DNA of 64,000 nucleotides, from assembly GCA_963697165.1 (NCBI GenBank), contig CAVOMX010000017.1, forward strand, positions 15,849 to 79,848, read 5' to 3'. This document shows positions 3,514 through 58,593 of this stretch, in pieces. This DNA is from Candidatus Bathyarchaeota archaeon. Lineage in GTDB: Archaea > Thermoproteota > Bathyarchaeia > Bathyarchaeales > Bathyarchaeaceae. The position numbers and the translations under genes are program-made. The notes under the pieces are model-generated. The model searched no databases and was not told the DNA's origin. It saw nothing but the letters and a program-made list of their open reading frames with translations. Every line of letters begins with the position of its first letter. Position 1 is the first letter of the stretch.

Positions 3514-3681
3514 AATGCTCCATTTCCCTTTTCTTTTTTTATGTTCAAAGATAATTACTAAATAATTCTTTATAGAAAAAAGAAAATTTTGATTTGTAAT
3601 TCTTGTCTATTTTCACAGATAAGGCCTTTCTGAAATTAAGCTATCAAAAAATACATGCGCTTAAAAACTGACAAATGTTTA

Positions 3682-4548: not shown

Positions 4549-4727
4549 GATGATGAATCCTAAACTTGTGTTTCCGGAATAACATCATTAAGTTTTCTCC
4601 GAATATAAGATGAGCAATAAATTAGATAAAAAAGATAGCCTTAACAATTCTTAAAATTCTATAAATTATTAGATCCAAATTGGTTGATAAATAAACTACA
4701 TTTTATTTAATATGTGTTATGAGATAT

Positions 4728-5087
4728 TCAAATAGCCGATAAAAGAAGAGCTTCAATTATCAAGACAATCCCAGTTACAATAAACACTTCCATCTGTTTC
4801 TCAATTTCCTTTTGGCGTTTGGCATTCCAAGGTTTAGAATGGAATAAGACTTCGTCTATCTTGGCAACCGGGGGGGAATATAGGGTTACTGCACCACCTA
4901 CAATGAGGCCAATTCCCCCTTCAATCAACATAACAAATGAAAGAGTGTATGTAATCTGATTTGTTCCCCCAATGAGGAAGACAATTAAAATAGCATCTAT
5001 TGTTATGATGATTAACGAATAAATTGAAGACCTAACAAGAGACTCCAACGCAGTTTTCCAAACAATCATAGAATATTCTGTCTTCAC
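4728..5087 (-). CDS. Small integral membrane protein, function unknown
   Basis: 119-aa ORF with three to four hydrophobic helices; no recognisable motif. Confidence 0.4.
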   Translation of the reverse strand: MKTEYSMIVWKTALESLVRSSIYSLIIITIDAILIVFLIGGTNQITYTLSFVMLIEGGIGLIVGGAVTLYSPPVAKIDEVLFHSKPWNAKRQKEIEKQMEVFIVTGIVLIIEALLLSAI

Positions 5088-5189
5088 AATTCTATTTAAG
5101 ATTGGTCAAATCAAATATGAGAGCAGGGGATTGGCTGAAAAAGTTTTTCCTGTTCTGGGTGAATTCATTAAATTAATGAAAAAGTAGTT

Positions 5190-6452
5190 ATGCAGATTAA
5201 TCAAACAATTCTGCTATCTATGTCAATTAAAAAAGTCTACGGCTGCTACACCGGAATACCGAAAGAGGCAAAATATCTAATCTATGCCTCCATAATGCCA
5301 TCTGTTGCGTACGGCATGTTATTTACTGATCTATCCTTTTTCCTGACTGCTGTGCAAGGAGTCTCGACTAATTTCATGGGAATAGTCATAACTTCAATGG
5401 GTGTCTCTACGTTTGTTGCCAGTATTCTTCTCGGAATTATTGCAGATGTTTATGGGCGAAAGAGACTGCTTATTGGCGGTAATGTGCTTGCTAGTGTAAT
5501 ATTAATTGCTTTTGCATTAACAACTGACCCATTGCTATTAATTGCCGCTGCAATTGTGGAAGGAATATCTGAAGGTGCCATCTTAGCATCCAGCAACGCT
5601 TTGCTTGCAGAAAAAGTGAAGGATGAACAAAGAACCAGTGTTTTTTCATTATATGGTTTTGCACAAAGTATTGCATTCGGTCTAGGAAGTTTTGCAGTAT
5701 CCGCCGTTTTAGTTTTTGAATTATTTGGATTCACGAACAGAGAAAGTCACATCCTTGTTTACATAATAATTGGTATTTTAAGTCTATTTTCAACTCTTAT
5801 CATGATCAAAGTAAAAGAATCCACGAACCTCAAAAAAATCAAAAAAGGTATATCAGATTTGATGCCTGGAAAATCAAAAAAACTTTTGTTTAAGTACGTT
5901 TTGACTGGCGCCATAATAGCTTTTGGAGCAGGATTAGTGGTTCCTCTTATGACTCTCTGGTTTAATTTGCAGTATGGAATTTCAGACGCAATAAGTGCAC
6001 CCATCTTGGCAATATCAAGTATACTGATTGGATTGGCAACACTTTATTCGCCTTTGTTGACAAAAAGACTCGGTCTAATTAAAGCGATAGTCATTACACA
6101 GATAGCTTCAACCGTTTTCATGTTCGCTACACCCTTTTCTCCTAACTTTGCAGTTGCCGGATTTGTATATAGTATGCGTGCGTTGCTCATGAACATGGGA
6201 AGCCCGTTGTCTCAGTCAATGATTATGGGTTTAGTTCCGGAAGATGAGCGTGGAACTGCTTCTGGGATAAGTGGCGCTTTATGGAGACTTCCTAATGCTT
6301 TGAGCACATGGATTGGAGCATGGCTTATGGGTATTGGATTATTGTTTGAGCCCTTCTTTATTGCAGGTTTATTCTACATTATTTCGATAATGTTATTCTG
6401 GTTTTTCTTTAGAAGATTGAAAATTCCTGAAGAACAGATTCCGCCCAAATAA
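5190..6452 (+). CDS. MFS transporter
   Basis: 420-aa ORF with about 12 hydrophobic segments. MFS loop 2-3 motif ADVYGRKRLLIGG. The true start may be an internal Met (MSIKK). Confidence 0.8.
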   Translation: MQINQTILLSMSIKKVYGCYTGIPKEAKYLIYASIMPSVAYGMLFTDLSFFLTAVQGVSTNFMGIVITSMGVSTFVASILLGIIADVYGRKRLLIGGNVLASVILIAFALTTDPLLLIAAAIVEGISEGAILASSNALLAEKVKDEQRTSVFSLYGFAQSIAFGLGSFAVSAVLVFELFGFTNRESHILVYIIIGILSLFSTLIMIKVKESTNLKKIKKGISDLMPGKSKKLLFKYVLTGAIIAFGAGLVVPLMTLWFNLQYGISDAISAPILAISSILIGLATLYSPLLTKRLGLIKAIVITQIASTVFMFATPFSPNFAVAGFVYSMRALLMNMGSPLSQSMIMGLVPEDERGTASGISGALWRLPNALSTWIGAWLMGIGLLFEPFFIAGLFYIISIMLFWFFFRRLKIPEEQIPPK

Positions 6453-6562
6453 TTTCATCTTCGTTTAACCCAGTTTGTAACTAGACAAATAATCAAAGAT
6501 TCTTGTTTTTCAGAAAAACCTTATAACATCAGATCCCACTCTCGAAAATTAAGGAATAGTTC

Positions 6563-7450
6563 TTGCGAAAACCAAACCTCGCAGCAGGTGATAAAAAAGA
6601 AGCAGTGCTGTTCACGATTATAGCCAGCTCTCTGTGGGGCACCTCTTTTCCAGCAATAAAGATTGGCTTACAGTATATGGATCCTTATACTTTTGTATTC
6701 TTGAGATTCTTTATTGCCTCGCTGATGATGTTAGCCATGATTATATTTACAAAAAATTTCAGCTTTAACTTCAACAAGAAACGATTAATCCTATTCTTGG
6801 GTTTAACGAACGGGGTAGCATATCTTTTGCAATATATTGGCATGTTTTACACCTTCGCCTCAAAATCATCGTTATTGGTAAACCTCACGGTAGTCTGGGT
6901 TGCCTTGCTAAGTCCAATAATATTAAAGGAACAAATAGGCAGAAAAAAATTGGCAGGCGTGATTCTAAGTCTTCTAGGAATTGTACTTGTAACAACGAAC
7001 TTAGATTTCCAGTCATTTGGCATGGGAGAGATTATGGGGGATTTACTCATGATTGCAGCTGGAATGATCTGGGCGCTATTTATTATATACAATAAGCCGT
7101 TGGTTAACGAAAGCAAAAACATGATTCAGTCCTTGACTTGGCTCTTGCTCTTCACTATGCTACCTTTAATTCCAGTGGTGCCTTTTTCTGCAAAGAATTT
7201 CCTAACGTTACCCTGGGAGGCTTGGATTGCAATCATCTATACTGCAATCTTTTGCTGGATCATACCTTATTATCTTTGGTCTAAAGGATTGAAAAATATT
7301 TCACCTGTAACTTCGGCAGTAATTCTCTTGAATGAAATACTAGTTGCCGTAACAATTTCAACAATAGTTCTTGGAGAATCCTTGACAGCAATCTCTGGTA
7401 TCGGAGCCGTTTTTATTATTATAGCAATCATGCTAGTTTCGTATGGATGA
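6563..7450 (+). CDS. EamA/DMT family transporter
   Basis: 295-aa ORF with 10 predicted helices arranged as two EamA-like halves (WGTSFPAIKIGL..., ...LWSKGLKNISPVTSAVILLNEILVAV). Confidence 0.8.
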   Translation: MRKPNLAAGDKKEAVLFTIIASSLWGTSFPAIKIGLQYMDPYTFVFLRFFIASLMMLAMIIFTKNFSFNFNKKRLILFLGLTNGVAYLLQYIGMFYTFASKSSLLVNLTVVWVALLSPIILKEQIGRKKLAGVILSLLGIVLVTTNLDFQSFGMGEIMGDLLMIAAGMIWALFIIYNKPLVNESKNMIQSLTWLLLFTMLPLIPVVPFSAKNFLTLPWEAWIAIIYTAIFCWIIPYYLWSKGLKNISPVTSAVILLNEILVAVTISTIVLGESLTAISGIGAVFIIIAIMLVSYG

Positions 7451-7573
7451 TTTTCCTTTTTGATTTGATGAATGAATTCATTTTCACAAAATTTTTTTCC
7501 TGGGACTCCACTTAGATATCACGGGAACCGCTATATTGCGGATAAAAAAGATTAGGTCAGGTTGAGACTTGAA

Positions 7574-8461
7574 ATGGAAAAACCAACTTTTAATATTGTA
7601 GATGTGTTTGCCGAAGAAAAATTTACAGGAAACCAGCTTGCGGTTTTTAGATTTGTAAAAAAATTATCAGATGATCAAATGCAGCGAATAGCCAAAGAAA
7701 TGAATTACTCAGAAACAACATTCATATTATCAGATGAAAAACAAGACGAGGGATACGATGTACGCATTTTTACGCCAGAAATAGAGGTGCCTTTTGCAGG
7801 TCATCCAACATTAGGGACAGCTTTTGTGATACAGCACGAAATCATAAAAGAACCTATAAACGAGATAGTTTTGAATCTGAAAGCCGGTAAAATTCCCGTT
7901 TCCTTCAGTTATGACGGAGAGAAATCATGTAATTTATGGATGAAGCAGCTTCACCCGTTATTTGGAGAAAAGTTTGATGCCGAGTTGATCTCTAAGATTT
8001 TAAGTCTTGATATAAGCGATATAAATGCAGTCTTCCCAATTCAAGAGGTTTCAACCGGTCTCCCTGCTGTAATAGTTCCACTAAAAACATTGGATGCAGT
8101 GAAAAAAGCCAGAATAAATAGGGACCGGTATTTCGAGTTTATCAAGGACATTGAAGCTAAAACAATGCTAATTTTTTGTCCAGAAACTTACAATCTCGCA
8201 CATGACTTAAATGTGAGGTTTTTTGCAGATCATTACGGTATCCCAGAAGACCCTGCTACGGGAAGTGCAAATGGGTGTCTGGCAGCCTACCTCGTTAAAC
8301 ATCGCTACTTTGGAACCCATCGAATAAATCTTCAAGTAGAACAGGGCTATGAAATAGGTAGACCATCATTACTTTTTCTAAAAGCGGAGGAGAAAAAACA
8401 AGAGCTTGCTGTGTATGTAGGTGGCAAAGTAGAGATGATAGCCAAGGGAGAACTTGTATAA
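7574..8461 (+). CDS. PhzF-family (phenazine biosynthesis-like) isomerase
   Basis: FNIVDVFAEEKFTGNQLAVF, NYSETTFI, FAGHPTLGTA and DPATGSANGCLAAYL are hallmark PhzF/YddE motifs. The ORF track starts at TTG 7562; ATG at 7574 preferred. Confidence 0.85.
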   Translation: MEKPTFNIVDVFAEEKFTGNQLAVFRFVKKLSDDQMQRIAKEMNYSETTFILSDEKQDEGYDVRIFTPEIEVPFAGHPTLGTAFVIQHEIIKEPINEIVLNLKAGKIPVSFSYDGEKSCNLWMKQLHPLFGEKFDAELISKILSLDISDINAVFPIQEVSTGLPAVIVPLKTLDAVKKARINRDRYFEFIKDIEAKTMLIFCPETYNLAHDLNVRFFADHYGIPEDPATGSANGCLAAYLVKHRYFGTHRINLQVEQGYEIGRPSLLFLKAEEKKQELAVYVGGKVEMIAKGELV

Positions 8462-8803
8462 AACAACCCGTTTATTTGGTTTGAATAAAAGAGATTAAAA
8501 ATGATCTATCTCAAAAAGAAAAGAACAAGTTTGCTTATTTTCGTGATAATAATATAGTTTTACGGAAGTTGCGTTTTTTCTTTAATAAATCTTTCTTAGC
8601 TAACTTTTTTGTCCTATAGATCAATTGTCTTTGCAGCTATAGGCCGGACTCAGATTCTATTTCCTGTGAAATGAAACAACATGTAACCGATAATAAAGAA
8701 GCCTAATTTGAGGTGTGTATAAACCAAAATAATTAATCTAAGGTTGCATATAAACGAGGTTTCGAATACCTTTTCTTAGCGTATTCCTTTAGAGTGTGAG
8801 AAT

Positions 8804-9787
8804 ATGAAGGAAATTCAATTCCGAAATTATCTCCAAGAACGTAAGTTGACCCCAGAGGAAGCTAATTTGTCTGTGAACTCAATCAAAGAGTTCGAGGACT
8901 ATCTTGAAAAGAAGAAAATGTCGTTCGAGACTGCAGGATTAGATACGCTTGTAGAGTATATCTCACTGATGATTGAAGAAGACAAGAACTCGATGAACAG
9001 ACTCATCGCGATTGCTCGCTACTGCAACATTACTAAGAAAGATGACTACTACGTTTATCTAGTATCAATTTTAGGTGCTAGAAATGTGTTGCCTGACATA
9101 GGCGAAAGGGTAGCACTTATTTCTGGAGAGGTAGTTCAACATAAAGTCTTTCAAGGGTTCGAGTTGCCTCCGCTAGGGGCGCCTCCTGAGAACTACCCAC
9201 AAATCACCAAGATTATTATGGATAGGCTGAAGGCTGAACTTCCCAACGAAACCTGCAGGAAGATCCTCACGTGGAACTACCATAGAGTGCCAACTGAGAG
9301 CTTCAAGGAGAAGAAAGACCGATTTGAGAAATCCGATAGTATCGACGGATACTTGAAAAACGAACATAAGATGTTTGTAGATGAGCTTAAGAAGTTCATG
9401 AACGAGGGGAGAATATGGTACGAGCAAGAGATATCCCCTGAAGTTCTAGAGTTCGTACGGGGTAATCAAGAGATTTGTACAGGTGTCAGACGCGGTAATA
9501 GGATCTACCTGACCAAAATACCTTATGCTCCGAAGCAATACCTGGAGGAGAAGGATTCCGCCTTGAAGAGGTACTACGCCTGTCATTGCCCTCTCGTAAG
9601 ATCAGCCTTATGTAATGGAAAAATCGAGATATCACATATGTTCTGCTACTGTAGTGCCGGATATGAAAAAATAGGATTCGACGTAATATTCGAAGAATCA
9701 GTTGAAGTAGAGTTGCTAGAGAGTGCACTCAAAGGAGACTCTCAATGTCGCTTTGCTATTAGAATTCCAAGAGGTAAAATGAAATAA
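8804..9787 (+). CDS. Hypothetical protein with Cys-rich C-terminal domain
   Basis: 327-aa ORF. N-terminus resembles the SAM-like helical domain of phage integrases (FRNYLQERKLTPEEANLSVNSIKEFEDYL). C-terminus has YACHCPLVR...FCYCSAGYEK...GDSQCRFAIRIP, a probable metal/ligand-binding module. Confidence 0.6.
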   Translation: MKEIQFRNYLQERKLTPEEANLSVNSIKEFEDYLEKKKMSFETAGLDTLVEYISLMIEEDKNSMNRLIAIARYCNITKKDDYYVYLVSILGARNVLPDIGERVALISGEVVQHKVFQGFELPPLGAPPENYPQITKIIMDRLKAELPNETCRKILTWNYHRVPTESFKEKKDRFEKSDSIDGYLKNEHKMFVDELKKFMNEGRIWYEQEISPEVLEFVRGNQEICTGVRRGNRIYLTKIPYAPKQYLEEKDSALKRYYACHCPLVRSALCNGKIEISHMFCYCSAGYEKIGFDVIFEESVEVELLESALKGDSQCRFAIRIPRGKMK

Positions 9788-29320: not shown

Positions 29321-30445
29321 ATGTCTGAAACTCTTGAGATGCCGCTCAATGCCCTCAACGAATGGCTAAACAAAGAAACAACCGCCATAATTGAACCCCT
29401 AAAGGATGACGCAAAAAAGATACTTGAAGACACCAAAACTAAGCTTGAAGAACTCTCAGACGCCAGTGACAAATTGTTAGATGATGCAGAAAAAGAGATG
29501 GCAAAATCTAGCCGCAAAACATATAATCGCGCAAAATATCTCTACAAACTCGCTGGAACATTCTCTGATTTAATTGAGAAAGTCACCATTCCCGAAGAAA
29601 TCAACGGAAAAACCCTTAATGAAACTTCTGAACAAATCGGAAAAACCATAAAAACAATCGGTCAAGAGAAAACAAAATGGTTCCGCGCGATTTCACCATA
29701 CTTCATAATTTCTCGTCGAAGATTCGAGGCTTCATTTAAGAGGGCAGATGATTCAATCCGAAACTTTACTGACTTCATGACGAAAGAGTACGTTAAGGCT
29801 GAAAGCGCTGAAAACGTTTTTTCCAAGATAGATGAGTTACGCCAATCCTTAGCCGAGTTAAACGAGTACGAAAAAGGTAAAGAAACAAGAGAACAGAAAA
29901 AACAGCTTCTTGAAACGAACATAGCCAAGAGTCAACAGAATATTCAGGCAATCCAGTGTAAAGACGAGGTAGTTGAACTCGTTCAAATAAACTCGAGAAT
30001 CAAAGAATTGACTGAAACTGTTAAACATGAATTGCGACACATCCAAAAACCGCTTCTAAAATTTCAAACATTAGTTAACAGCCCTGGATACAGTCTCTTT
30101 CCTGAGGCAACCAGTAAACTTGATGAATACTTGTCTAATCCATTTGATGCCTTGGCGACAGAAAAAGAAGGTTATCCTCTGCTAAGAAGCATTCTTCAAA
30201 AGATAGACACAGTTTTAGATAACAAACAAATGAAACTTAAACCGAGTCGCCTGAAGAAGGCGAAAGACCAGATAGAAAGTATTGTAAATAAAGAGGCTTT
30301 AGTGTCGCTTCAGAAGAACTGCAGCAAAGTTTTAAACAAAAAATATGAGTTGTCGGCTTCAGGGACAATAAGCGAGTGCAGAGACGAAAGAGCAAGATTA
30401 CATGATCGCTTGGAAGACTTGCAGACGACAGAAGAGTATCGTTGA
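29321..30445 (+). CDS. Coiled-coil protein, function unknown (coding potential continues in another frame to 30572)
   Basis: 374 aa, rich in K/E/L heptads. After the TGA at 30443-30445 the +1 frame reads IVEIRDSRLEKEHNEARKKIDDQKRALEKIVSDISSKNVQIVIN*, which has the same character. Confidence 0.6.
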   Translation: MSETLEMPLNALNEWLNKETTAIIEPLKDDAKKILEDTKTKLEELSDASDKLLDDAEKEMAKSSRKTYNRAKYLYKLAGTFSDLIEKVTIPEEINGKTLNETSEQIGKTIKTIGQEKTKWFRAISPYFIISRRRFEASFKRADDSIRNFTDFMTKEYVKAESAENVFSKIDELRQSLAELNEYEKGKETREQKKQLLETNIAKSQQNIQAIQCKDEVVELVQINSRIKELTETVKHELRHIQKPLLKFQTLVNSPGYSLFPEATSKLDEYLSNPFDALATEKEGYPLLRSILQKIDTVLDNKQMKLKPSRLKKAKDQIESIVNKEALVSLQKNCSKVLNKKYELSASGTISECRDERARLHDRLEDLQTTEEYR

Positions 30446-30695
30446 AATCAGAGACAGTAGGTTAGAGAAAGAGCATAATGAAGCACGCAAAAAAATTGAC
30501 GACCAGAAAAGGGCTCTGGAAAAGATTGTGTCAGATATATCCTCCAAGAATGTACAGATCGTGATAAATTAACTGTATTTCAAAACATTTTATCCATAAA
30601 TTTCATGATCTAGGAAACTGGTAAAAGTCTGTAAACCTTTATTTAATGGAATTATTAAATTTAGGTCTATACAAAAAGCGGGGGTAAGGCTAAAC

Positions 30696-31148
30696 ATGTT
30701 CGAAGATCAAATAGACAAAATTATCGATAAGTATGAGAACGAAAAAGGTATTTTGATTCAATTATTACTCGATATTCAACACGAGTTTCGTTGGATACCA
30801 AAGGATGCAATAACAAGAATAAGTGAGAGGCTCAAGATTCCCTACAGTCAAATATTTAGGGTTGCAAGTTTTTACACTGGACTGAGTCTCAAACCTATAG
30901 GTCGTCATCTTATTAGAGTATGCGTTGGTACTGCTTGTTATGTTCGAGGAGGACCGAGAATTCTGGATGCCGTAGAGAATAAATTAGGGATAAAATCTGG
31001 CGAGACAACAAGTGACAATAAGTTCAGTTTAGAGACAGTAAATTGCTTAGGTTGCTGCGCCTTGGGGCCAGTTATGGAAATTGATGGTCAATATTTTGGA
31101 AAGCTCAATTCCGCAAATCTTGAGAAAACACTCTCTAACTATAATTAA
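30696..31148 (+). CDS. NuoE/HndA/HydC-like [2Fe-2S] thioredoxin-like ferredoxin subunit
   Basis: LLDIQHEFRWIP..., CVGTACYVRGG and VNCLGCCALGP give the NuoE cysteine pattern. Confidence 0.85.
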   Translation: MFEDQIDKIIDKYENEKGILIQLLLDIQHEFRWIPKDAITRISERLKIPYSQIFRVASFYTGLSLKPIGRHLIRVCVGTACYVRGGPRILDAVENKLGIKSGETTSDNKFSLETVNCLGCCALGPVMEIDGQYFGKLNSANLEKTLSNYN

Positions 31149-31166
31149 CAGGAGAAATGAAAAGTA

Positions 31167-33101
31167 ATGAAACCGTTAAAATCTTCTTCTGATCTGGAAA
31201 AACTCCGAAAAAAGATACTTGACAAAAAAGATCCTAAGAGGATAACTATCTCAGCATGCGTAAGTACTGGTTGTAAAGCTCTTGGCGCCCAAAAAGTCCT
31301 TGAAGCTTTCAATGTAGAACTCAAAAAACAGGGCCTAGACAGAAAAGTAGATATTAAAGAAACAGGTTGCCTAGGTTTCTGCGAAAAAGGTCCTAGAATA
31401 GTTATCTATCCTGAAGAAATTTACTATTTCCAAGTAGACGCAAAAGATGTACCAGAAATCGTATCGAAGACTTTGATCAACAATGAAATTGTTGAAAGGT
31501 TACTTTACACTGATCTGATTACTGGCGAAAAAGCACGCTATCTGTCTGAAGTTCCATTCTATAAGTATCAGAACAGGCTTCTTTTGGAGAGCAATAGTAA
31601 AATCGACCCTAAAAAGATAGAGGATTACTTATCGATAGGTGGTTATGCAGCATTAGCAAAAGCTCTTTTTCAAATGACACCTGAGGACGTAATGAATGAA
31701 GTTAAGGAATCCAAACTTCGCGGTCGGGGTGGAGGCGGTTTCCCAACTTACATAAAGTGGGAATCTACCCGTAAGGCACCAGGAGAGCCCAAATATGTTA
31801 TTGTAAACTGCGACGAAGGCGATCCGGGAGCCTTCATGAACAGGGCGTTGATGGAAGGAAATCCACATTCAATTCTTGAGGGCCTTATCATAGGAGCTTA
31901 TGCAATAGGTTCGGATGAGGGATTCCTTTATGTGCGTCAAGAGTATCCACTCGCAGTTGAGAACATGGAAATAGCCATTAAAGAAGCAGAAAAGATGGGA
32001 CTTTTAGGTGAAGACATACTAGGTTCAGGATTTAACTTTAAGGTTAAGATCCATAAAGGGGCAGGCGCTTTTGTGTCTGGCGAGTCAAGCGCTCTGATGA
32101 CTGCAATAGAAGGAAAGGTCGGTGAACCAAGACCTAAATATGTCCACACATCTGAAAAAGGAGTCTGGGATAAGCCAAGCACACTGAATAATGTCGAAAC
32201 ATGGGCTAACATACCCCCTATAATCAATAATGGTGCTAAATGGTTTGCATCAATTGGTACCGAAGCCAGCAAAGGCACCAAAATATTTGCTTTAGCCGGC
32301 AAAGTAAACAACACTGGTTTAGTTGAAGTTCCTTTCGGCATTTCATTAAGAGATATCATATTCAAAATTGGTGAAGGAATCCGGGATGGAAAGCGATTCA
32401 AGGGTGTTCAAACTGGGGGTCCCTCTGGAGGCGTCATCCCTGAGCAGCACTTAGATTCTCCCGTTGATTTTGATGAACTCACCAAGCTAGGTTCAATGAT
32501 GGGTTCTGGCGGGATGATCGTAATGGACGAAGATACCTGCATGGTAGAACTAGCCCGTTACTTTGTAAACTTCTTATGCGATGAATCTTGCGGAAAATGC
32601 ACACCTTGTCGGGAAGGATTGAGGCAAGCTAGTATAATCTTAAACAGGATCGTTAGCGGTAAAGGAACAGAGGATGACATAGATAAGCTTGGAAAAATTG
32701 CAGAGGTAACCCGCGTTGCTTCCCTATGCGCTTTAGGACAAACATCTGCAAATCCCTTGTTAACCACTCTTCGATACTTCAAAAACGAATACGAAGTACA
32801 CATAAATGAAAAAAGATGTCCATCATTAGTCTGTAAAGACCTGATATCCTATTATATTGACCCTGAAAAGTGTCAGGCCTGCATGATTTGTTATAGGAAC
32901 TGTCCAACGAATGCGATAATCGGGGAAAAGATGAAAATTCACATCGTTGATCAATCAAAATGCATCAAATGTGGAAGCTGCTATGACTTATGTCCACCCA
33001 GATTTAAGGCAGTAAAAAAAATATCTGGTGAAGCGGTTCCACTACCCATTCCAGAAGAAGAGAGATTGGTCACGAGATTAAGGAAGGAGAAGCGGGACTA
33101 G
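31167..33101 (+). CDS. NuoF/HydB-like NAD(H)-binding FMN iron-sulfur flavoprotein with extra N-terminal 2Fe-2S and C-terminal 2x[4Fe-4S] domains
   Basis: GRGGGGFPT, NCDEGDPGAF, ESCGKCTPCREG, CQACMICYRNCP and CIKCGSCYDLCP. The N-terminal part has SACVSTGCKALGA...GCLGFCEKGP. Confidence 0.9.
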   Translation: MKPLKSSSDLEKLRKKILDKKDPKRITISACVSTGCKALGAQKVLEAFNVELKKQGLDRKVDIKETGCLGFCEKGPRIVIYPEEIYYFQVDAKDVPEIVSKTLINNEIVERLLYTDLITGEKARYLSEVPFYKYQNRLLLESNSKIDPKKIEDYLSIGGYAALAKALFQMTPEDVMNEVKESKLRGRGGGGFPTYIKWESTRKAPGEPKYVIVNCDEGDPGAFMNRALMEGNPHSILEGLIIGAYAIGSDEGFLYVRQEYPLAVENMEIAIKEAEKMGLLGEDILGSGFNFKVKIHKGAGAFVSGESSALMTAIEGKVGEPRPKYVHTSEKGVWDKPSTLNNVETWANIPPIINNGAKWFASIGTEASKGTKIFALAGKVNNTGLVEVPFGISLRDIIFKIGEGIRDGKRFKGVQTGGPSGGVIPEQHLDSPVDFDELTKLGSMMGSGGMIVMDEDTCMVELARYFVNFLCDESCGKCTPCREGLRQASIILNRIVSGKGTEDDIDKLGKIAEVTRVASLCALGQTSANPLLTTLRYFKNEYEVHINEKRCPSLVCKDLISYYIDPEKCQACMICYRNCPTNAIIGEKMKIHIVDQSKCIKCGSCYDLCPPRFKAVKKISGEAVPLPIPEEERLVTRLRKEKRD

Positions 33102-33111
33102 AGGAGCGTGA

Positions 33112-34545
33112 ATGAAGATGGAAAGAAGCGAAAAAGAAATCACGTTGAAGATAGACGGGAATGAAGTCAATGCCAAAGAAGGAACATCCATTTTTGATGT
33201 AGCAAAAACAGTTGGTATTACGATTCCTACGCTCTGTCATAATACTGTTCTTGAGCCTTTTGGTGCTTGCCGTGTATGTTCGGTGGAAATAACGGACAAG
33301 CGAGGAAGGAAAAAGATTGTGACTTCATGCAATTACCCTGTATTTGAAGGACTCATTGTTGACACAAAATCTGAGAAAGTATTCAGAACGCGTCAATTGC
33401 TCCTTGAGTTGTTACTTGCTCGCTGTCCAAATGCTAAAAAGATACAGGATTTAGCGCGGGAATATGGCGTTGAGACGCCGAGCTTTTGTGTAGTAGACCC
33501 AGAAGAGGATTGTATCCTCTGTGGCTTGTGTGCTCGTGTTTGTGAAGAAAAAGTTGGCGTATCTGCAATCAATTTTGCGAATCGAGGCGTAGAACGAGAA
33601 GTCACATCTCCATATCACACGATATCTGATGATTGCGTGGGATGTGGCGCATGCGCTATCGTCTGCCCTACAGACTCAAAAAAAGTTAGAATAAACACCT
33701 ATCCCATGCTGGAAGAGGACATTAAGGAAGCAGAAAAGAAGTTTCTGAACGGAACAAAAGACGAATTTTTGGGCGTTTACACCGAGCTTTTTGCAGCAAA
33801 AAGTTCTATTGATGGCCAAGATGGAGGAATGGCTACTGCTTTGCTCCTTTCGGGATTTGAGAAGGGATTGTTTGATGCTGCTATTGTCGTTAAGCGAACA
33901 GTTGGATATAAAGCGGAGGCAATTATTGCTGAAACTGCTGATGACATACTGAATGCACGAGGAACTAAATATTCAAGAGTTAAAATGATGTCAAAAGTAG
34001 GGGAGCTAGTGGAAAAAGGGAAAAAGAGAATAGCTATTGTTGGTACGCCATGCGAGGTTCGAACAGGAAGAAAAATTCAGCAACAACTACTAAGTAAATA
34101 CCCCGACCTAGAGATTACCATCGTAGGATTGTTCTGCTTTGAAGCCTTCGATTACGACAAACTGAAAGAAGAAATAAAGAGGTTCTTGGGTGTTGATTTG
34201 GACAAGGCTGAAAAAACTCAGATACAGAAAGGAAAATTTATAGTTCGAATTGGTGAAAACGAATACTCTGCAAAGGTGAAAGAATTTCACGATGCTATTC
34301 AGGGCGGATGCGCTTACTGTAATGATTTTGTTGCCCGACTTGCCGATGTTTCAGTTGGTTCAGTAGGAAGCAAGGATGGATATTCAACAGTGATAGTTAG
34401 GTCGGATAAAGGAAAGAAGCTTCTGGAAAATGTTGACTTCGTTAAAGGAGATTGTAACAAAGAAGACGTGATAAAACTAGCGGATTTCAAAAAGAAAAGA
34501 GCGGACAAAAACTTTTCTCCAATTATTAAAGGGACACAGAAGTAG
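33112..34545 (+). CDS. Fusion protein: NuoG/HydA-type N-terminal 2Fe-2S + two 4Fe-4S motifs, then FrhB-type (F420 hydrogenase/dehydrogenase beta) domain
   Basis: ITLKIDGNEVNAKEGTSIFDVA...CHNT..GACRVC, CILCGLCARVCEE and CVGCGACAIVCPT. These are followed by GQDGGMATALLLSGFEKGLFDAAIVV...RIAIVGTPCEV...IVGLFCFEAFDY and CAYCNDF. Confidence 0.8.
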   Translation: MKMERSEKEITLKIDGNEVNAKEGTSIFDVAKTVGITIPTLCHNTVLEPFGACRVCSVEITDKRGRKKIVTSCNYPVFEGLIVDTKSEKVFRTRQLLLELLLARCPNAKKIQDLAREYGVETPSFCVVDPEEDCILCGLCARVCEEKVGVSAINFANRGVEREVTSPYHTISDDCVGCGACAIVCPTDSKKVRINTYPMLEEDIKEAEKKFLNGTKDEFLGVYTELFAAKSSIDGQDGGMATALLLSGFEKGLFDAAIVVKRTVGYKAEAIIAETADDILNARGTKYSRVKMMSKVGELVEKGKKRIAIVGTPCEVRTGRKIQQQLLSKYPDLEITIVGLFCFEAFDYDKLKEEIKRFLGVDLDKAEKTQIQKGKFIVRIGENEYSAKVKEFHDAIQGGCAYCNDFVARLADVSVGSVGSKDGYSTVIVRSDKGKKLLENVDFVKGDCNKEDVIKLADFKKKRADKNFSPIIKGTQK

Positions 34546-34565: not shown

Positions 34566-34598
34566 AAATCCTGTTTAGACAGGATTTCTCCTTTTTTT
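34566..34598. terminator. Hairpin plus T7 tract between convergent genes (probable bidirectional terminator)
   Basis: AAATCCTG tttaga CAGGATTT ctcc TTTTTTT, lying between the stop at 34545 (plus strand) and the stop at 34602 (minus strand). Confidence 0.55.
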
Positions 34599-34601
34599 AT
34601 G

Positions 34602-35114
34602 TTACTTTATTGTTCTGAATAGTTTGTATCTTTGTAATCGTGGCCAACCCGTTTTTGCATATTTCATCATGTCAGGGTTTTTCTTTAGCCAATCCATCAT
34701 GTGGAAAAAGTTTTTTGCCCGTTTGCTTTCTCGTTCTTCTAGAGGTTCGTAACCTAGATTTCTTAGTTCATCGAGGTAAGCGGTTTCCGTGAAGTCCTGT
34801 GGATCTCCTGTAACTTTGATTCTGTGGATTCGGTCTTCACCATATTTTCGTTTTAGTCTCTCGATAACATCGTCAAAGATGTATCCTCTGCAGATGTGAA
34901 TTTCTTCCTCTGGTTTTGGTTTCATTTCAGCCAGTAGCTTGGTTACAATCTTTGAGGATTGGGTCATGTATGCTTTTCGTGAAAAAAGTCTGGCTTGAAA
35001 ATTTTTCACGTCAATAATGTCGTATTTGAATTCGCGGGTTGAATCTTGATATGCTGCGATAACAACACCAAAGAGTAGGTCGCCCATTCCCGCATCATCT
35101 ATAATAATTGTCAT
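34602..35114 (-). CDS. Uncharacterised conserved protein, family X (paralog of 58677-59204)
   Basis: 170 aa. It shares with its paralog IIDDAGMGDLLFGVVIAA / LIDDSGWGDLILGVVIGA, ICRGYIF / VCSGYVL, KVTGD / EVTGE and AKTGW / VKTGW, in the same order. Confidence 0.7.
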   Translation of the reverse strand: MTIIIDDAGMGDLLFGVVIAAYQDSTREFKYDIIDVKNFQARLFSRKAYMTQSSKIVTKLLAEMKPKPEEEIHICRGYIFDDVIERLKRKYGEDRIHRIKVTGDPQDFTETAYLDELRNLGYEPLEERESKRAKNFFHMMDWLKKNPDMMKYAKTGWPRLQRYKLFRTIK

Positions 35115-39193: not shown

Positions 39194-40000
39194 ATGCGGG
39201 AGATACAAGTTTCCCGAGTAAACGTTTCAGACCAGACTGTCGAACAACGGACAGACTACGTAGCAGAAGAGACAGCCCTACATATATTCCTCAACAAACA
39301 CCACTACGGAACAATCCTCTGTTCCCCTAACCAACTAAAAGAAATGGTGATTGGACATCTTCTCTCGGAAGGACTCCTGCAATCAACAAGCGAAATAGAA
39401 GATTTACAACTAAAAAAAGACGGAAAATGCCTACTAACACTCAAACCAAACATAGACGTAGAGACACGAATCTCAACATCACAACGCTTCTCACGCCTAA
39501 TAGTTTCCGCCTGTGGCTCCCCAGACTATCGACCTCTCTCCGAAGTCATCGACAACCTCCCAAAACTGAAATGACTCCAACAGTAGACGCAGAAGTCATT
39601 TCACAGTCAGTAAAAAGCCTAAACACTATTGCTGAGAACTTCAGAAAAACAGGCGGAGTTCATGTTGCAGCACTCTATACCAAAGATGGAAAACTGGAGG
39701 CTCTGGCTGAAGATGTGGGACGCCACAACGCCGTCGACAAAGTCATCGGCTCAGGAGCAATAAAAAACATTGACTTCAAAAACATTTTTCTCGCCTTAAG
39801 CGGGCGTCTCACCGGAGACATAGTTTTGAAAGCTGCACGAATGAAAATTCCAATTATCGCTTCATTGTCAGCCGCAATCAGTTCTGGCTTAGAAGCAGCA
39901 CAACTAACAAGATGTTACCCTAATCGGTTTCGTCAGAGGCAAACGAATGAACGTTTACACAAGTCCAGAACGAATAATCTTTGGCTCCCGTAAAGTTTAA
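39194..40000 (+). pseudogene. fdhD: Formate dehydrogenase accessory sulfurtransferase FdhD with two frameshifts
   Basis: Piece 1 is ORF 39194-39574 (...IVSACGSPDY...). Piece 2: TPTVDAEVISQSV...TGGVHVAAL...GRHNAVDKVIG...IASLSAAISSGLEAAQL. Piece 3: DVTLIGFVRGKRMNVYTSPERIIFGSRKV*. Shifts lie at the A4 run 39562-39565 and near 39906-39912. Confidence 0.8.
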
Positions 40001-41451: not shown

Positions 41452-42081
41452 TTGTTGGACGCGATTGTCTTGCAAAGATCGGCGATTATTCTCGCGGGTG
41501 GCTTCTCTAGAAGGTTTGGCAGCGATAAAGGACTAGTTGTATTGGCTAATAAGCCCCTTGTTGTTCATGTGATTGACCGCATATCCCCTGTAGTTGACGA
41601 AGTTCTCTTGGTAGTCAGCTCTGAAGCTCAGAAACAGAGTTTTGAGCCTATCTTGGAAAACAAAGCAAAACTGATCATTGACAAAGACGATTCCCAGAGC
41701 CCCCTTATTGGAGCCATAACAGGATTCGAAACCGCAAAGGGGGAATACTCAGTGCTTCTACCATGTGACACCCCCTTAATTTCAACCAAAATAGTTCAGT
41801 TTTTTCTAGATTTGTGCACCAACAGAAGCGCTGTTATTCCCAGATGGCCAAGCGGATATATTGAACCTCTGCAAGCAGTTTATCACACAAAATCAGCCTT
41901 AACTGCAGCGAAAAACGCGCTAGCCGAGGGAAACATGAACATGCAGTCAATGATTGATGATCTAATGGGAGTACGCTATGTTTCCACAATGGTTTTGGAG
42001 CAAATGGAACCTGAGCTTGTGACCTTTTTTAACGTCAATACTCCTCAGGATCTACAGAAAGCTGCCGCAATTCTGAACTAA
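41452..42081 (+). CDS. mobA: Molybdenum cofactor guanylyltransferase MobA
   Basis: AIILAGGFSRRFGSDKGL, LPCDTPLI. TTG start. Confidence 0.85.
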   Translation: MLDAIVLQRSAIILAGGFSRRFGSDKGLVVLANKPLVVHVIDRISPVVDEVLLVVSSEAQKQSFEPILENKAKLIIDKDDSQSPLIGAITGFETAKGEYSVLLPCDTPLISTKIVQFFLDLCTNRSAVIPRWPSGYIEPLQAVYHTKSALTAAKNALAEGNMNMQSMIDDLMGVRYVSTMVLEQMEPELVTFFNVNTPQDLQKAAAILN

Positions 42082-42345: not shown

Positions 42346-43110
42346 TTGTTATTGAATAAAGTCGATGTATTCGCAGTAACTGGTTTGCCTATTGTAAAAG
42401 AAGGAGATGATCTTGCCCTACTGATTTGTCAAGCCGCTGAAAAGCAGGGAACTCCGATCCAAAATGGTGACGTAATAGTAGTCACTCACGTTGTAGTTTC
42501 TAGAGTTGAAGGAAATGTTGTAGACCTCGAAACAGTAACCCCCTCCGAATTTGCAAAAACAGTAGCTAAAACAACACACAAAGACCCCAAACTCGTTGAA
42601 GTTATTCTCAGAGAATCTAAAAGCATCGTACGTATGAGTAACGGAAAACTCATCACAGAAAGCAAACAAGGGTTGGTTTGCGCTAACTCAGGGATTGATC
42701 AGTCTAACGTTCCCGGAAAAACAGTTGTAGCGCCTTTGCCTAAAGATTCTGATAATTCAGCACGAACGATACGAAAAAATGTGCTGAATATTTCTGGAAA
42801 AGACGTGGCCGTCATTGTATCGGACACGCATGGACGTCCACTTCGTCAGGGTGAAATCAACATAGCTTTAGGCACTTCCGGATTCGAGCCACTACGAGAT
42901 CGAAGAGGCGAAAAAGACCTTTTCGGGTACACAATTAGAATCAAAAGAACCGCTATCGCTGACGAGTTAGCTTCAGCCGCTGAATTGGTTATAGGACAAA
43001 CAAATGAAGGCATTCCAGTAGCCATAATTCGTGGATATCTATACCCGAAATCTGAAACCGCAAACGCAAAGAAAATGATACGTCCTCCGGAAGAAGATTT
43101 GTTTATCTAA
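42346..43110 (+). CDS. cofE: Coenzyme F420-0:L-glutamate ligase CofE
   Basis: VFAVTGLPIVKEGDDLALLI, GDVIVVTHVVVSRVEG, ANSGIDQSN and VSDTHGRPLRQG fit the CofE/FbiB N-terminal-domain family. Confidence 0.85.
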   Translation: MLLNKVDVFAVTGLPIVKEGDDLALLICQAAEKQGTPIQNGDVIVVTHVVVSRVEGNVVDLETVTPSEFAKTVAKTTHKDPKLVEVILRESKSIVRMSNGKLITESKQGLVCANSGIDQSNVPGKTVVAPLPKDSDNSARTIRKNVLNISGKDVAVIVSDTHGRPLRQGEINIALGTSGFEPLRDRRGEKDLFGYTIRIKRTAIADELASAAELVIGQTNEGIPVAIIRGYLYPKSETANAKKMIRPPEEDLFI

Positions 43111-54756: not shown

Positions 54757-55930
54757 TTAATCTCTCCTGTAAATATGTACGCTAGCTGTAGCTCCAGAGC
54801 CACCAACATTATGACTTAAACCGATTTCGGCTCCATCAACTTGCCTCTTTTGAGCCTGTCCTGTCAGTTGTAAATAGATTTCGTATGCTTGAGCTGTTCC
54901 AGTTGCCCCAACAGGATGCCCCTTTGATTTTAGTCCTCCACTCGGGTTTACGGGAAGCTTGCTTCCAAGTTCAGTTACCCCTTCTTGTATCAGGTTTCCG
55001 CCTTTTCCAGAACCACAGAAACCTAGGTCTTCGTATGCTAGTATTTCGGCTATAGTGAAGCAGTCATGAACTTCTGCAACATCCAAATCTTTGGGTTCTA
55101 CGCCCGCCATCTTGTAGGCTTCTTGTCCTGCAAGTCTTGCAGCTTTAAGCGAAGTGAGCGATTCTCTTTCGTACAGTCCAATTGTGTCGCTGGCCTGTCC
55201 AGAACCAACTATGTGAACGGGTGTGTCAGTGAATTTTTTTGCAAGGTCAGGATGTGTTAAAATTATGCAACTTGCTCCGTCAGTTATCAGGGAACAATCA
55301 TACAGTTTCAGAGGCCATGCAACAACCTTTGAGGCCAATGCTTTTTCTAAAGTTATTTCTTTTTGCATGTGAGCTTTCGGATTTAAGGTTCCGTTGTGAT
55401 GGTTCTTTACCGCCACTTGGGCCATCTGCTCTTCAGTTGTGCCGTATTTGTGCATGTGAGCAGTAGCCATGAGGGCATACAGTGCAGGAAAAGTTATTCC
55501 ATTCCATTGTTCAAAGGGCATGTCCGAGGCCATAGCCAGAAACTCTGTTACTTCAGCTGTTGTGCGGTGAGTCATTTTTTCTACCCCGCCAACCATGACG
55601 ACCTTGTGTAGACCAGAAAGTATTGCCAGAATTCCGATTCTTAGGGCGGATCCGGACGAGGCACATGCAGATTCAATTCTTATTGCAGGTTTTGGGAGTA
55701 AACCAGTCCAGTCGGCTAATGTGGGTCCTGTGTGTCCTTGATGTTCATAGGATTCGCCCATGTGACCCACGAATAGGGCTTCAATGTCTTTTATTGGATC
55801 CAGATTAGGACATCTATCAAATGATTCTTTGGTTGCTTCTACAAAAATTTCTCTGCATAGCACTTTCTTCGTGGCGTCCAAACTTGGATAATCCTGCGGA
55901 TACGATTGAAACTAATGGTTTACTTGCCAA
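54757..55930 (-). pseudogene. Archaeal-type thiolase (acetyl-CoA acetyltransferase), body intact but one frameshift about 15 codons from the start
   Basis: ORF 54757-55881 has IESACASSGSALR (active Cys), NPSGGLKSKGHPVGATG and HNVGGSG. The upstream frame from TTG 55930 gives ASKPLVSIVSAGLSKFG, the expected N-terminus. The shift lies near 55880-55890. Confidence 0.8.
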
Positions 55931-58008: not shown

Positions 58009-58593
58009 ATGATAATGGGCGATAAACTAGCGAATCCAGCTCCTCTGGGACTATTGGGTTTCGGAATGACAACAGTGCTTCTGAACATACACAACGCAGG
58101 CATATATCCATTAGGCAGCATGATACTGGCTATGGGACTGGTATACGGTGGATTAGCTCAAGTAATTGCTGGGGTTATGGAGTACAAGAAAGGTAACACT
58201 TTTGGTACCCTTGCTTTCAGTTCTTACGGCTTATTCTGGTGGTCCCTCGTTATTTTGCTATTGCTCCCCAACTTTACGTTTCTGTCTCCCGCTGTTACAA
58301 CTCCTGACAATACAGCCATGGCAGCATACTTCTTCATGTGGGGGATGTTCACGTTGCTGATGTTCTGTGGTACACTAAAAAGTAATCGTGCAATACAGTT
58401 CGTCTTTAGCAGCTTAACTGTGCTGTTCTTCTTGTTGACGATTGTGAGACTGACCGGAAACGCGGATTTACTATTGATTACGGGAATAGAAGGAATAATC
58501 TGTGGAGCAAGCGCAATCTACACCGGCATAGCTGAAGTCTTGAATGAAGTCTACGGAAGAACAGTTCTGCCATTGTGTCCAGTAAACAAGTAA
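58009..58593 (+). CDS. satP: GPR1/FUN34/YaaH family acetate/succinate transporter
   Basis: The [18 protein letters not shown] signature and six helices. Confidence 0.85.

Follow-up and report, generated by a model that had tools for sequence, protein, structure and literature searches.

A bathyarchaeal three-gene operon predicted to encode an F420-dependent member of the bifurcating BfuABC enzyme family

Bathyarchaeia are among the most abundant archaea of anoxic sediments, and the acetogenic or fermentative metabolism proposed for them employs a tetrahydromethanopterin (H4MPT)-type Wood-Ljungdahl pathway, which needs the reduced form of coenzyme F420 (F420H2). The F420-reducing hydrogenase, to our knowledge, is absent from most of these archaea. 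The source of F420H2 (for Mer) in Bathyarchaeia has been described as unclear, and orphan homologs of the hydrogenase subunit FrhB exist (Loh et al. 2021). The question of what an FrhB-type protein may be doing in such an organism is posed by a 64,000-nucleotide stretch of a Candidatus Bathyarchaeota archaeon genome (assembly GCA_963697165.1, contig CAVOMX010000017.1, positions 15,849 to 79,848 of the forward strand; hereafter the window), in which an FrhB-type domain is encoded by the last of three closely spaced genes, the first two of which resemble subunits of electron-bifurcating enzymes.

These genes, referred to as gene 1, gene 2 and gene 3, were found exactly at the positions given in a preliminary description of this DNA, with the same co-direction on the forward strand and with the same spacers of 18 nt (gene 1/gene 2) and 10 nt (gene 2/gene 3). 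Judged from their sequences, they form one operon for a soluble, HydABC-like BfuABC heterotrimer of the F420-Bfu type, which would catalyse the reversible bifurcation of electrons between F420, NAD and ferredoxin; the probability of this reading is put at roughly 0.65. It is preferred because the products of genes 1 and 2 are nearest to those of bifurcating enzymes (HydC/WorC and HydB/NfnB/WorB, respectively) and because the residues characteristic of FrhB are kept in gene 3. The idea put forward earlier, that of an F420 oxidoreductase with a HydBC-type core that is linked to NAD(H) and may be coupled to ferredoxin, was supported by all sequence tests.

The product of gene 1 was recognised by Pfam as a 2Fe-2S_thioredx protein (PF01257, E = 1.5e-50), and both parts of the NuoE 2Fe-2S pattern ascribed to it (CVGTACYVRGG and CLGCCALGP) are present in the translation. 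The ligands of its [2Fe-2S] cluster C1 are C76, C81, C117 and C121, which are kept in 44-45 of the 45 orthologs. All of the top seven matches in the PDB are C subunits of Bfu enzymes: WorC (9mqx_C) leads with 153 bits and is followed by HydC (8a6t_C, 7t2r_C, 7p5h_C), NfnC (9bov_C, 9n5u_C) and once more HydC (7q4v_C). With this domain and its place directly upstream of gene 2, gene 1 has the features of BfuC, a NuoE-like 2Fe-2S protein (IPR002023) encoded together with BfuB.

BfuB itself is defined by a 51-kDa FMN-binding domain, an SLBB domain, a NuoF 4Fe-4S domain and a 4Fe-4S ferredoxin-type domain (IPR011538, IPR019554, IPR019575, IPR017896; Schut et al. 2022, PMC9304861). In gene 2, Pfam identified Complex1_51K (PF01512, 2e-43), NADH_4Fe-4S (PF10589, 1.9e-29) and two Fer4 domains, as well as an extra N-terminal thioredoxin-like part (2Fe-2S_thioredx, E = 5.6e-9). 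The SLBB domain gave no match in gene 2 at E<=0.01 and a weak one in a 73 %-identical ortholog; the corresponding region of gene 2 aligns gap-free to HydB structures and holds the motif GGPSG. The architecture of an NAD(H)/flavin mononucleotide (FMN) subunit had been deduced from GRGGGGFPT, CDEGDPGAF, ESCGKCTPCREG, CQACMICYRNCP and CIKCGSCYDLCP, all of which occur in the translation, in agreement with the Pfam domains. The individual sites could be located as follows: the ligands of the N-terminal [2Fe-2S] cluster (C31, C36, C68, C72), the FMN/NAD(H) site (GRGGGGFP 186-193, DEGDPGAFM 216-224), the ligands of the [4Fe-4S] cluster B1 (C475, C478, C481, C521), a Cys3-His “B2/Zn” site (C458, H545, C551, C556), assigned by alignment to HydB of Acetomicrobium mobile (7t2r_B), and a C-terminal 2x[4Fe-4S] domain predicted to bind ferredoxin (C569-C579, C599-C609). 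The best PDB match of gene 2 is the same 7t2r_B, the NiFe-HydB of the bifurcating NiFe hydrogenase of A. mobile (791 bits), followed by WorB (734 bits) and T. kivui HydB (721 bits), and the HydB/NfnB subunits of the remaining structurally characterised bifurcating enzymes score 627-721 bits. Nqo1/NuoF, meanwhile, reach ~345 bits only, and over the core region only.

Gene 3 starts with a part (residues 8-188) that matches Fer2_4 (1.1e-17), Fer4_7/Fer4_21 and also Fer2, in other words with the 2Fe-2S and 4Fe-4S ferredoxin-type domains that a BfuA subunit holds as a minimum. The [2Fe-2S] ligands are C42, C53, C56 and C73, those of the two [4Fe-4S] sites are C134/137/140/144 and C175/178/181/185, and these Cys are kept in 46-48 of the 48 orthologs. 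The best PDB match of this part is WorA of the tungsten aldehyde oxidoreductase complex (9mqx_A, residues 5-181, 141 bits), in which the Cys pattern is identical to that of gene 3 residues 10-188. WorA contains clusters A1, A2 and A4 and is devoid of A3; the alignment to WorA, together with a motif check, gives gene 3 the set A1, A2 and A4 without A3 and A5. The preliminary description likened this start to that of NuoG/HydA, and the 2Fe-2S motif, CILCGLCARVCEE and CVGCGACAIVCPT are indeed there. However, the His-ligated 4Fe-4S motif (HxxxCxxCxxxxxC) was not found in gene 3, where the sequence reads LLLARCPNAKK, and the best match is a short BfuA, WorA.

The C-terminal part of gene 3 matches FrhB_FdhB_N (5.1e-16) and FrhB_FdhB_C (4.2e-39), the two spanning residues 234-441. 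NCBIfam profiles were in agreement with the Pfam assignments, although gene 3 scores below the equivalog cut-offs (see below). An FrhB-type domain for F420 and flavin adenine dinucleotide (FAD) had been proposed on the strength of GQDGGMATALL, IAIVGTPCEV and VGLFCFEAFDY; these motifs are in the translation, and the profile and structure searches recommended for gene 3 returned Fer2_4, Fer4-type domains, FrhB_FdhB_N/C and an FrhB-like fold. The landmarks of M. marburgensis FrhB are Cys104/134/192/195, 163-IGKGK and S209/V210. By alignment, the [4Fe-4S] Cys of the gene 3 domain (C314, C342, C400, C403), the FAD site (QDGG 236-239, GTKY 284-287) and the F420-site motifs (I371-x-KGK375, GSVGS 416-420) correspond to the Fe-S, FAD and F420 landmarks of FrhB. 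Hence none of the F420/FAD residues whose loss had been considered earlier is missing, and the combination of four Cys with FAD/F420 motifs that marks PF04422/PF04432 is present. These cofactor motifs are kept across the family, nearly all ligands being invariant in the 45-48 orthologous modules. The sequence matches of the C-terminal half are the F420H2-oxidase half of Fsr (7np8_A), FrhB (9r51_B/3zfs_C) and 8riu_B, and it also aligns with F420-reducing components of the CODH and Fwd of Ca. Ethanoperedens. The AlphaFold2 model of gene 3 (mean predicted local distance difference test score, pLDDT, of 70) is confident over the FrhB domain, and in Foldseek searches it matched FrhB with template modelling (TM) scores of 0.76-0.79, as well as 8riu_B and Fsr, while its N-terminus matched WorA/HydA/NuoG. 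In addition, the cofE gene (F420-0:gamma-glutamyl ligase), reported earlier from outside the operon, was confirmed in the window by a match to PF01996; the host therefore makes F420.

The survey of the three-gene module that had been called for revealed a wide distribution. In the metagenomic protein collection the gene 3 fusion has >1,700 close relatives; the best 120 are all 466-483 aa long and share one core set of domains. Clustered at 50 %, proteins of the full-length architecture form essentially two groups, that of the window and another with 44 % identity. A species-level scan (one genome per species) yielded 281 relatives, and 60 of the best 80 loci, which were examined, hold the full-length fusion, corresponding to at least 60 species-level genomes. 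Identity to gene 3 amounts to 61-92 % in Bathyarchaeia, 54-61 % in ANME-1/Methanophagales (anaerobic methanotrophic archaea, ANME), 48-50 % in Methanothrix and Ca. Methanocrinis, and 39-42 % in a distant clade of Methanosarcinales-type metagenome-assembled genomes (MAGs). The closest relatives are Ca. Bathyarchaeum MAGs, and the window is therefore taken to come from that lineage. Genes 1, 2 and 3 are contiguous in this order (C-B-A) in 48 of the 49 loci with enough upstream sequence, namely in 28 from Bathyarchaeia, 11 from ANME-1, 4 from Methanothrix/Methanocrinis and 5 from the distant clade, with median spacers of 15 nt and 1 nt. The module is thus a self-contained, conserved operon. The sole exception (L077), with its fragmented open reading frames (ORFs), gives the impression of a pseudogene or of damage during assembly. 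In the distant clade the two halves of gene 3 have diverged unequally (56 % identity in the N-terminal half, 32 % in the FrhB half), which hints at faster change or domain replacement.

No occurrence in Asgard archaea or bacteria is claimed, given that the contigs with odd labels fall inside the bathyarchaeal identity range. These are a “Lokiarchaeota” contig (L002, JAGXOB010000087.1, 77 % identity) and a “Ca. Acidoferrum” contig (L031, DATIXS010000266.1, 61 %), to which a “Methanophagales” contig (L066, JANJFQ010000163.1, 88 %) may be added; all three are probably mis-binned.

Complex formation, the use of F420 as a substrate, bifurcation and the physiological direction are predicted here by homology to NfnABC, WorABCSL and HydABC, on which the following mechanism is modelled. 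In the A subunit, the H-cluster domain of the hydrogenase would be replaced by the FrhB-type FAD/[4Fe-4S] domain binding F420. F420H2 would pass a hydride to the FAD of this domain, and single electrons would then travel via the FrhB [4Fe-4S] cluster and three clusters in the N-terminal part of this polypeptide, which align with A4, A2 and A1 of WorA, until they arrive at the [4Fe-4S] cluster B1 beside the FMN of BfuB. There the “flavobicluster” FMN/B1/C1 would split four electrons, two of them leaving as a hydride to NAD+ and the other two reaching ferredoxin (Fd) by way of C1 and of B3/B4 at the C-terminus. The overall reaction would be 2 F420H2 + NAD+ + 2 Fd(ox) <-> 2 F420 + NADH + 2 Fd(red), and it would be reversible.

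With potentials of -340 to -360 mV for F420, -280 mV for NAD under physiological conditions and -500 mV for ferredoxin (Schut et al. 2022, PMC9304861), the F420 couple lies slightly above the mean of the NAD and ferredoxin couples, and confurcation of NADH and reduced ferredoxin to F420H2 would therefore be mildly favoured. In Bathyarchaeia the enzyme probably runs toward F420H2 for the archaeal Wood-Ljungdahl pathway: fermentation would provide NADH and reduced ferredoxin, from which the enzyme would feed F420H2 into the methyl branch. Fwd, Mch or F420-type Mtd genes lie near the operon in close relatives, and the window contains cofE. In ANME-1 it may run the opposite way.

Among the other explanations, the one that survives best, unlikely as it seems, is a non-bifurcating NADH:F420 oxidoreductase, in which the FMN would handle NAD(H) and the FrhB FAD would handle F420, ferredoxin would take no part and the extra clusters would be structural or vestigial. 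The couples of NAD (-320 mV) and F420 (~-340 mV; Schut et al. Table 1) are close, so that coupling is not thermodynamically required, trimeric HydABC-like enzymes without bifurcation exist (e.g. Hyd1ABC of S. wolfei), and no biochemical data on F420-Bfu were found in the literature. On the other hand, every beta-subunit marker of bifurcation is present in gene 2. Losey et al. 2020 name as bifurcation-type, near the NADH/FMN sites, the A/E and M of PGAFM, the F of GAGAF, and GGPSG; gene 2 has A222 and M224 (not T/S..K), F302 (not Y) and GGPSG 417-421. It also has the Cys3-His site, which is absent from Nqo1/Hox/Hyd1B; the three Cys and one His of this site occur in all 1558 BfuB sequences and are absent from non-bifurcating homologs, and the Val at the fifth position of the motif in gene 2 is a listed variant, found in 195 of the 1558 (Schut et al. 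2022, PMC9304861). Cluster ligands and bifurcation-type signatures are kept in 44-48 of the 48 orthologs of gene 2 (the markers together with C458/H545/C551/C556 in 46-48), and two features are invariant in all 48: the Cys3-His site and the C-terminal 2x[4Fe-4S] domain, which serves as the ferredoxin dock in NfnABC and is present here across four clades.

It appears improbable that the trimer is an input/output module of a larger complex, the catalytic partner of which (Hdr, Fwd, CODH, a hydrogenase or FdhA) would be encoded elsewhere. FrhB-type modules are known to attach to varied enzymes (8riu_B, 8rja_E; the CODH and Fwd of Ca. Ethanoperedens), and Type 2 and Type 3 Bfu enzymes carry extra subunits. 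In the Ca. Bathyarchaeum chromosome CP070820 the operon is situated just downstream of Fwd subunit genes and mch. Moreover, the FdhD/NarQ-family and MobA-like genes of the window, located near cofE, imply a molybdo- or tungstopterin enzyme (Fwd/Fmd or Fdh) encoded outside it. Against this, Pfam scans of the window, which took in non-nested ORFs >=140 aa, found no Fwd neighbourhood, no Nuo/Fpo membrane or Q-module genes and, as had been stated earlier, no hydrogenase large subunit, FdhA or Hdr. No fourth gene conserved across clades was found beside the module in the 48 loci, the next commonest neighbour occurring in 9 loci, 7-9 of them bathyarchaeal. Gene 3 lacks the Zn-finger/helix adaptor of WorA, there is no Cys between its residue 188 and the FrhB domain, and it bears its own substrate domain, which is the hallmark of Type 1 enzymes.

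A donor or acceptor other than F420, as used by non-F420 members of the fold such as plant HCAR, is very improbable. In its favour, HCAR (5dqr) matches the fold significantly, the NCBIfam scores of gene 3 do not reach the cut-offs for FrhB (TIGR03289; 177 bits, equivalog cut-off 331.5 bits) and FpoF, and ~10 of the 48 orthologs deviate at K373 and K375, the two lysines of the IxKGK turn. Against it, the nearest relatives in sequence and fold (Fsr, FrhB, the CODH/Fwd components) are all F420-dependent and 30-34 % identical as compared with 19 % for HCAR, gene 3 possesses the GSVGS loop as well as the IxKGK turn at the F420 ring, and all hosts belong to F420-using archaeal lineages, the window itself containing cofE. 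Two further candidates were rejected. An ordinary FdhB/FrhB with its partner elsewhere, considered in the preliminary description, would be encoded with FdhA or with FrhA/FrhG, but neither FdhA nor FrhA was found in the Pfam scans of the window (non-nested ORFs >=140 aa) or beside the 48 modules, and gene 3 is far closer to Fsr/FrhB than to FdhB. A complex I (NuoEFG) or Hox-type NADH module was rejected on domain content and signature residues: gene 3 has no His-ligated N5 motif, and gene 2 has N- and C-terminal cluster domains which NuoF lacks.

The assignment to F420-Bfu has to be weighed against several points, of which the NCBIfam scores below the equivalog cut-offs and the fact that the FrhB fold is not strictly F420-specific (HCAR being, all the same, a far weaker match) have just been mentioned. 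The AlphaFold2 model is poor over the two 4Fe-4S motifs of gene 3 (pLDDT <35 for residues 125-186), so the spacing of the clusters is not readable from it. By closest PDB match the evidence on the BfuB clade is divided: gene 1 and the N-terminus of gene 3 are nearest to Wor, which belongs to clade 45, and gene 2 is nearest to the clade-49 NiFe-HydB (791 bits) and not to the clade-45 WorB (734 bits). It is, in turn, a hypothesis of Schut et al. (2022, PMC9304861) that every Bfu-type core bifurcates, and no purified or assayed member of the F420-Bfu class was found in the literature searched. Finally, two bathyarchaeal BfuB orthologs are without two of the four N-terminal [2Fe-2S] Cys.

The latter substitutions (C31S and C36G, at the B5 site) were observed in BfuB of Ca. 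Bathyarchaeum bin115 (CP070820.1; L001/L006) and of MCG-6 AD8-1 (L016). The loss is reminiscent of the B5 site of T. sibiricus NfnB, a subunit of an active bifurcating archaeal Nfn, in which the N-terminal 2Fe-2S site is occupied by zinc.

The features of the operon and of its surroundings are collected in Table 1. The intergenic region 5' of gene 1 is 250 nt long and contains an A/T-rich box and a Shine-Dalgarno (SD)-like element, and a terminator-like hairpin sits between the stop codon of gene 3 and a convergent gene; together these elements are consistent with a three-gene transcription unit. Scans of the window for tRNA genes and Rfam families gave no matches. The thiolase and the GPR1/FUN34/YaaH gene would fit an organism that produces acetate by fermentation or acetogenesis. 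The gene immediately 5' of the operon encodes an apparently coiled-coil protein without a Pfam match. A neighbour family with a median length of 416 aa occupies the matching position, ~3.8 kb upstream of the fusion gene, in 9 bathyarchaeal loci.

Table 1. Positions of the operon, its flanking elements and other genes in the window
Feature	Position	Strand	Remarks
Gene 1, BfuC	30696..31148	+	NuoE/HydC-like, 150 aa, one [2Fe-2S] (C1)
Gene 2, BfuB	31167..33101	+	HydB-type NuoF, 644 aa
Gene 3, N-terminal BfuA part	33112..33675	+	residues 1-188
Gene 3, C-terminal FrhB-type domain	33757..34515	+	residues ~216-468; whole gene 33112-34545, 477 aa
TATA-like A/T-rich box TTTATTTAA	30638..30646	+	upstream of gene 1; consensus resemblance only
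G-rich SD-like element GCGGGGGT	30678-30685	+	10-17 nt before the ATG of gene 1; consensus resemblance only
Terminator-like hairpin	34567..34598	.	7 bp (AATCCTG / CAGGATT), 6-nt loop, then seven T
Convergent gene	34602-35114	-	
Gene for apparently coiled-coil protein	29321-30445	+	374 aa, no Pfam match
FdhD/NarQ-family gene	39427-39993		
MobA-like gene	41452-42081		
cofE	42346..43110	+	PF01996, 3.1e-76
Thiolase gene	54757-55881	-	
GPR1/FUN34/YaaH gene	58009-58593	+	SatP-type acetate/succinate channel

Proteins related to the FrhB half of gene 3 were also encountered outside the three-gene module. Many Bathyarchaeota MAGs (L064, L067-L083) encode a stand-alone FrhB of 272-335 aa that is 48-57 % identical to this half, with no BfuB/BfuC within 8 kb except in L080. 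In the neighbour-joining tree of FrhB domains (midpoint-rooted, without support values), stand-alone bathyarchaeal FrhBs are placed beside the fused bathyarchaeal domains, and this group lies inside a clade with the fusions of ANME-1 and Methanothrix. The apparent closeness of the stand-alone proteins to the fused domain, which is no more than a lead, would suggest repeated fission and re-wiring, for instance next to a Hox-type hydrogenase. At the locus concerned (L080, positions 3097-8813; Bathyarchaeia MAG A05DMB21, JBNVCD010000001.1), a stand-alone FrhB of 271 aa is encoded 77 nt downstream of a co-directional cluster for HoxE, HoxF, HoxU, a small subunit and a NiFe large subunit, the HoxF being without a C-terminal Fer4 domain; it may represent an F420-linked Hox-type group 3 hydrogenase in Bathyarchaeia. 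An “unfused” variant was seen in Bathyarchaeota MAG palsa_986 (L058, positions 2485-8921, PKYH01000046.1), where BfuC, BfuB (68 % identity with gene 2) and a BfuA of 208 aa, in which only Fer2_4 was detected, are followed by three genes on the opposite strand and then by a stand-alone FrhB, whose identity with the FrhB half of gene 3 is 57 %. Two further bathyarchaeotal proteins, P0121 (716 aa) and P0282 (706 aa), match residues 133-467 of gene 3 at 57 % identity over a 4Fe-4S and FrhB part, N-terminal to which lie ~380 unrelated residues. A partial representative of their cluster, P0125, is named “RnfD” at NCBI, and the two proteins may be RnfD::FrhB fusions tying F420 to an Rnf-type complex.

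With an FrhB domain and a bifurcating NADH/ferredoxin core in one self-contained operon, the module offers a testable answer to the question of F420H2 supply in Bathyarchaeia, and it is relevant to redox balancing in ANME-1 as well. The chances seem evenly balanced that F420-Bfu is the main F420/NAD/ferredoxin hub in non-methanogenic and methanotrophic archaea without Frh (Bathyarchaeia, ANME-1) and the missing source of F420H2 for the Wood-Ljungdahl pathway of Bathyarchaeia, by a bi-/confurcation never demonstrated for F420. In biochemical terms, F420 would become one of the few proven third substrates of Bfu enzymes, and a compact three-subunit system would become available for the study of the flavobicluster mechanism.

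Several known systems can be set beside the operon. One of them is NfnABC (Nfn-Bfu; Thermococcus sibiricus, Caldicellulosiruptor saccharolyticus, and StnABC of Sporomusa ovata), a soluble ABC enzyme of Type 1 that ties together three cofactor pools and in which BfuA has a flavin domain for a mid-potential hydride cofactor. Its BfuBC core is strongly similar to that of the operon: gene 2 scores 661-678 bits against the NfnB structures 9n5u_B and 9bov_B and 627 bits against 8oh5_B of S. ovata. However, its third substrate is NADP(H), which is bound by a glutamate-synthase-like FAD domain unrelated to FrhB, and NfnA contains more clusters (A1-A3, A6, A7) than gene 3. WorABCSL, the bifurcating tungsten aldehyde oxidoreductase of A. 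mobile (PDB 9MQX), provides the best PDB match both for gene 1 and for residues 1-188 of gene 3, and the second-best for gene 2, and its BfuA has the identical cluster set. Whereas WorA ends in an adaptor that recruits separate catalytic subunits (WorSL), gene 3 runs directly into the FrhB domain, and the third-substrate site would therefore be on the A subunit itself.

The FrhB/Fsr-N/FpoF family has the fold, the four cluster Cys and the FAD/F420 motifs in common with gene 3, and Fsr and FpoF, like gene 3, possess a 2x[4Fe-4S] ferredoxin domain before the FrhB domain. Gene 3 differs in that it is associated with neither FrhA/FrhG nor sulfite reductase nor the Fpo membrane module, and in that it has a further 2Fe-2S domain of NuoG type at its N-terminus and is obligately linked to BfuBC at the genetic level. 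Another likely relative is the group of FrhB paralogs designated “FrhB8 (NuoF-Trx)”, which are located beside genes for a divergent NuoF and a “thioredoxin”, are almost exclusive to ANME and have had no function proposed (Chadwick et al. 2022, PLoS Biol 20:e3001508, PMC9012536). The ANME-1 loci found here hold gene 1 (a thioredoxin-like 2Fe-2S NuoE), gene 2 and gene 3, and FrhB8, matched by its published description alone, is probably the same module as F420-Bfu.

The closest counterpart, in the end, is F420-Bfu itself. It was predicted when the BfuABC family was defined, as a Type 1 enzyme of BfuB clade 45 with three members, all from Euryarchaeota (Methanosaetaceae), and was proposed to produce F420H2 from NADH and reduced ferredoxin (Schut et al. 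2022, Front Microbiol 13:946711, PMC9304861). The remark in the preliminary description that no enzyme of this composition had been characterised holds for the literature searched, in which no experimental characterisation of F420-Bfu was found and the term occurred in Schut et al. 2022 only (the complex is without mention in a 2025 Methanothrix preprint, a 2024 Bathy-6 paper and Loh et al. 2021), but the architecture had already been predicted and named. F420-Bfu has the same three subunits in the same C-B-A order, and its BfuA, like gene 3, carries one 2Fe-2S and two 4Fe-4S clusters and then, where the H cluster would be, an FrhB-type FAD domain. The locus of Methanothrix harundinacea (L051) shows 52/63/50 % identity (C/B/A) to the operon of the window with the same gene order, and it holds exactly both “Mh F420” motifs of the supplement of Schut et al. 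The BfuB motifs of “Mh F420” are shared by gene 2, including the unusual Ser in GAGAFVSGES; HxGAGAFVSGES is common to the clade-45 “Mh F420” and “Dm Mbh” sequences. The motifs of the Methanothrix locus and those shared by gene 2 together identify the operon as a bathyarchaeal ortholog of the predicted F420-Bfu. The hosts differ, euryarchaeal methanogens on the one side and Bathyarchaeia (Thermoproteota) on the other, as does the likely role, which in the window's host would be the supply of F420H2 to a non-methanogenic Wood-Ljungdahl pathway. The concept is accordingly not new, and the architecture itself will not surprise a specialist: the operon is a bathyarchaeal member of a predicted enzyme type. 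What is new is its orthology, its self-contained module, the conservation of its ligands and a host range well beyond Methanothrix (Bathyarchaeia, ANME-1), and the value of the locus lies, rather than in the discovery of a new kind of enzyme, in the wider range and the sharper case that it gives to an already published prediction.

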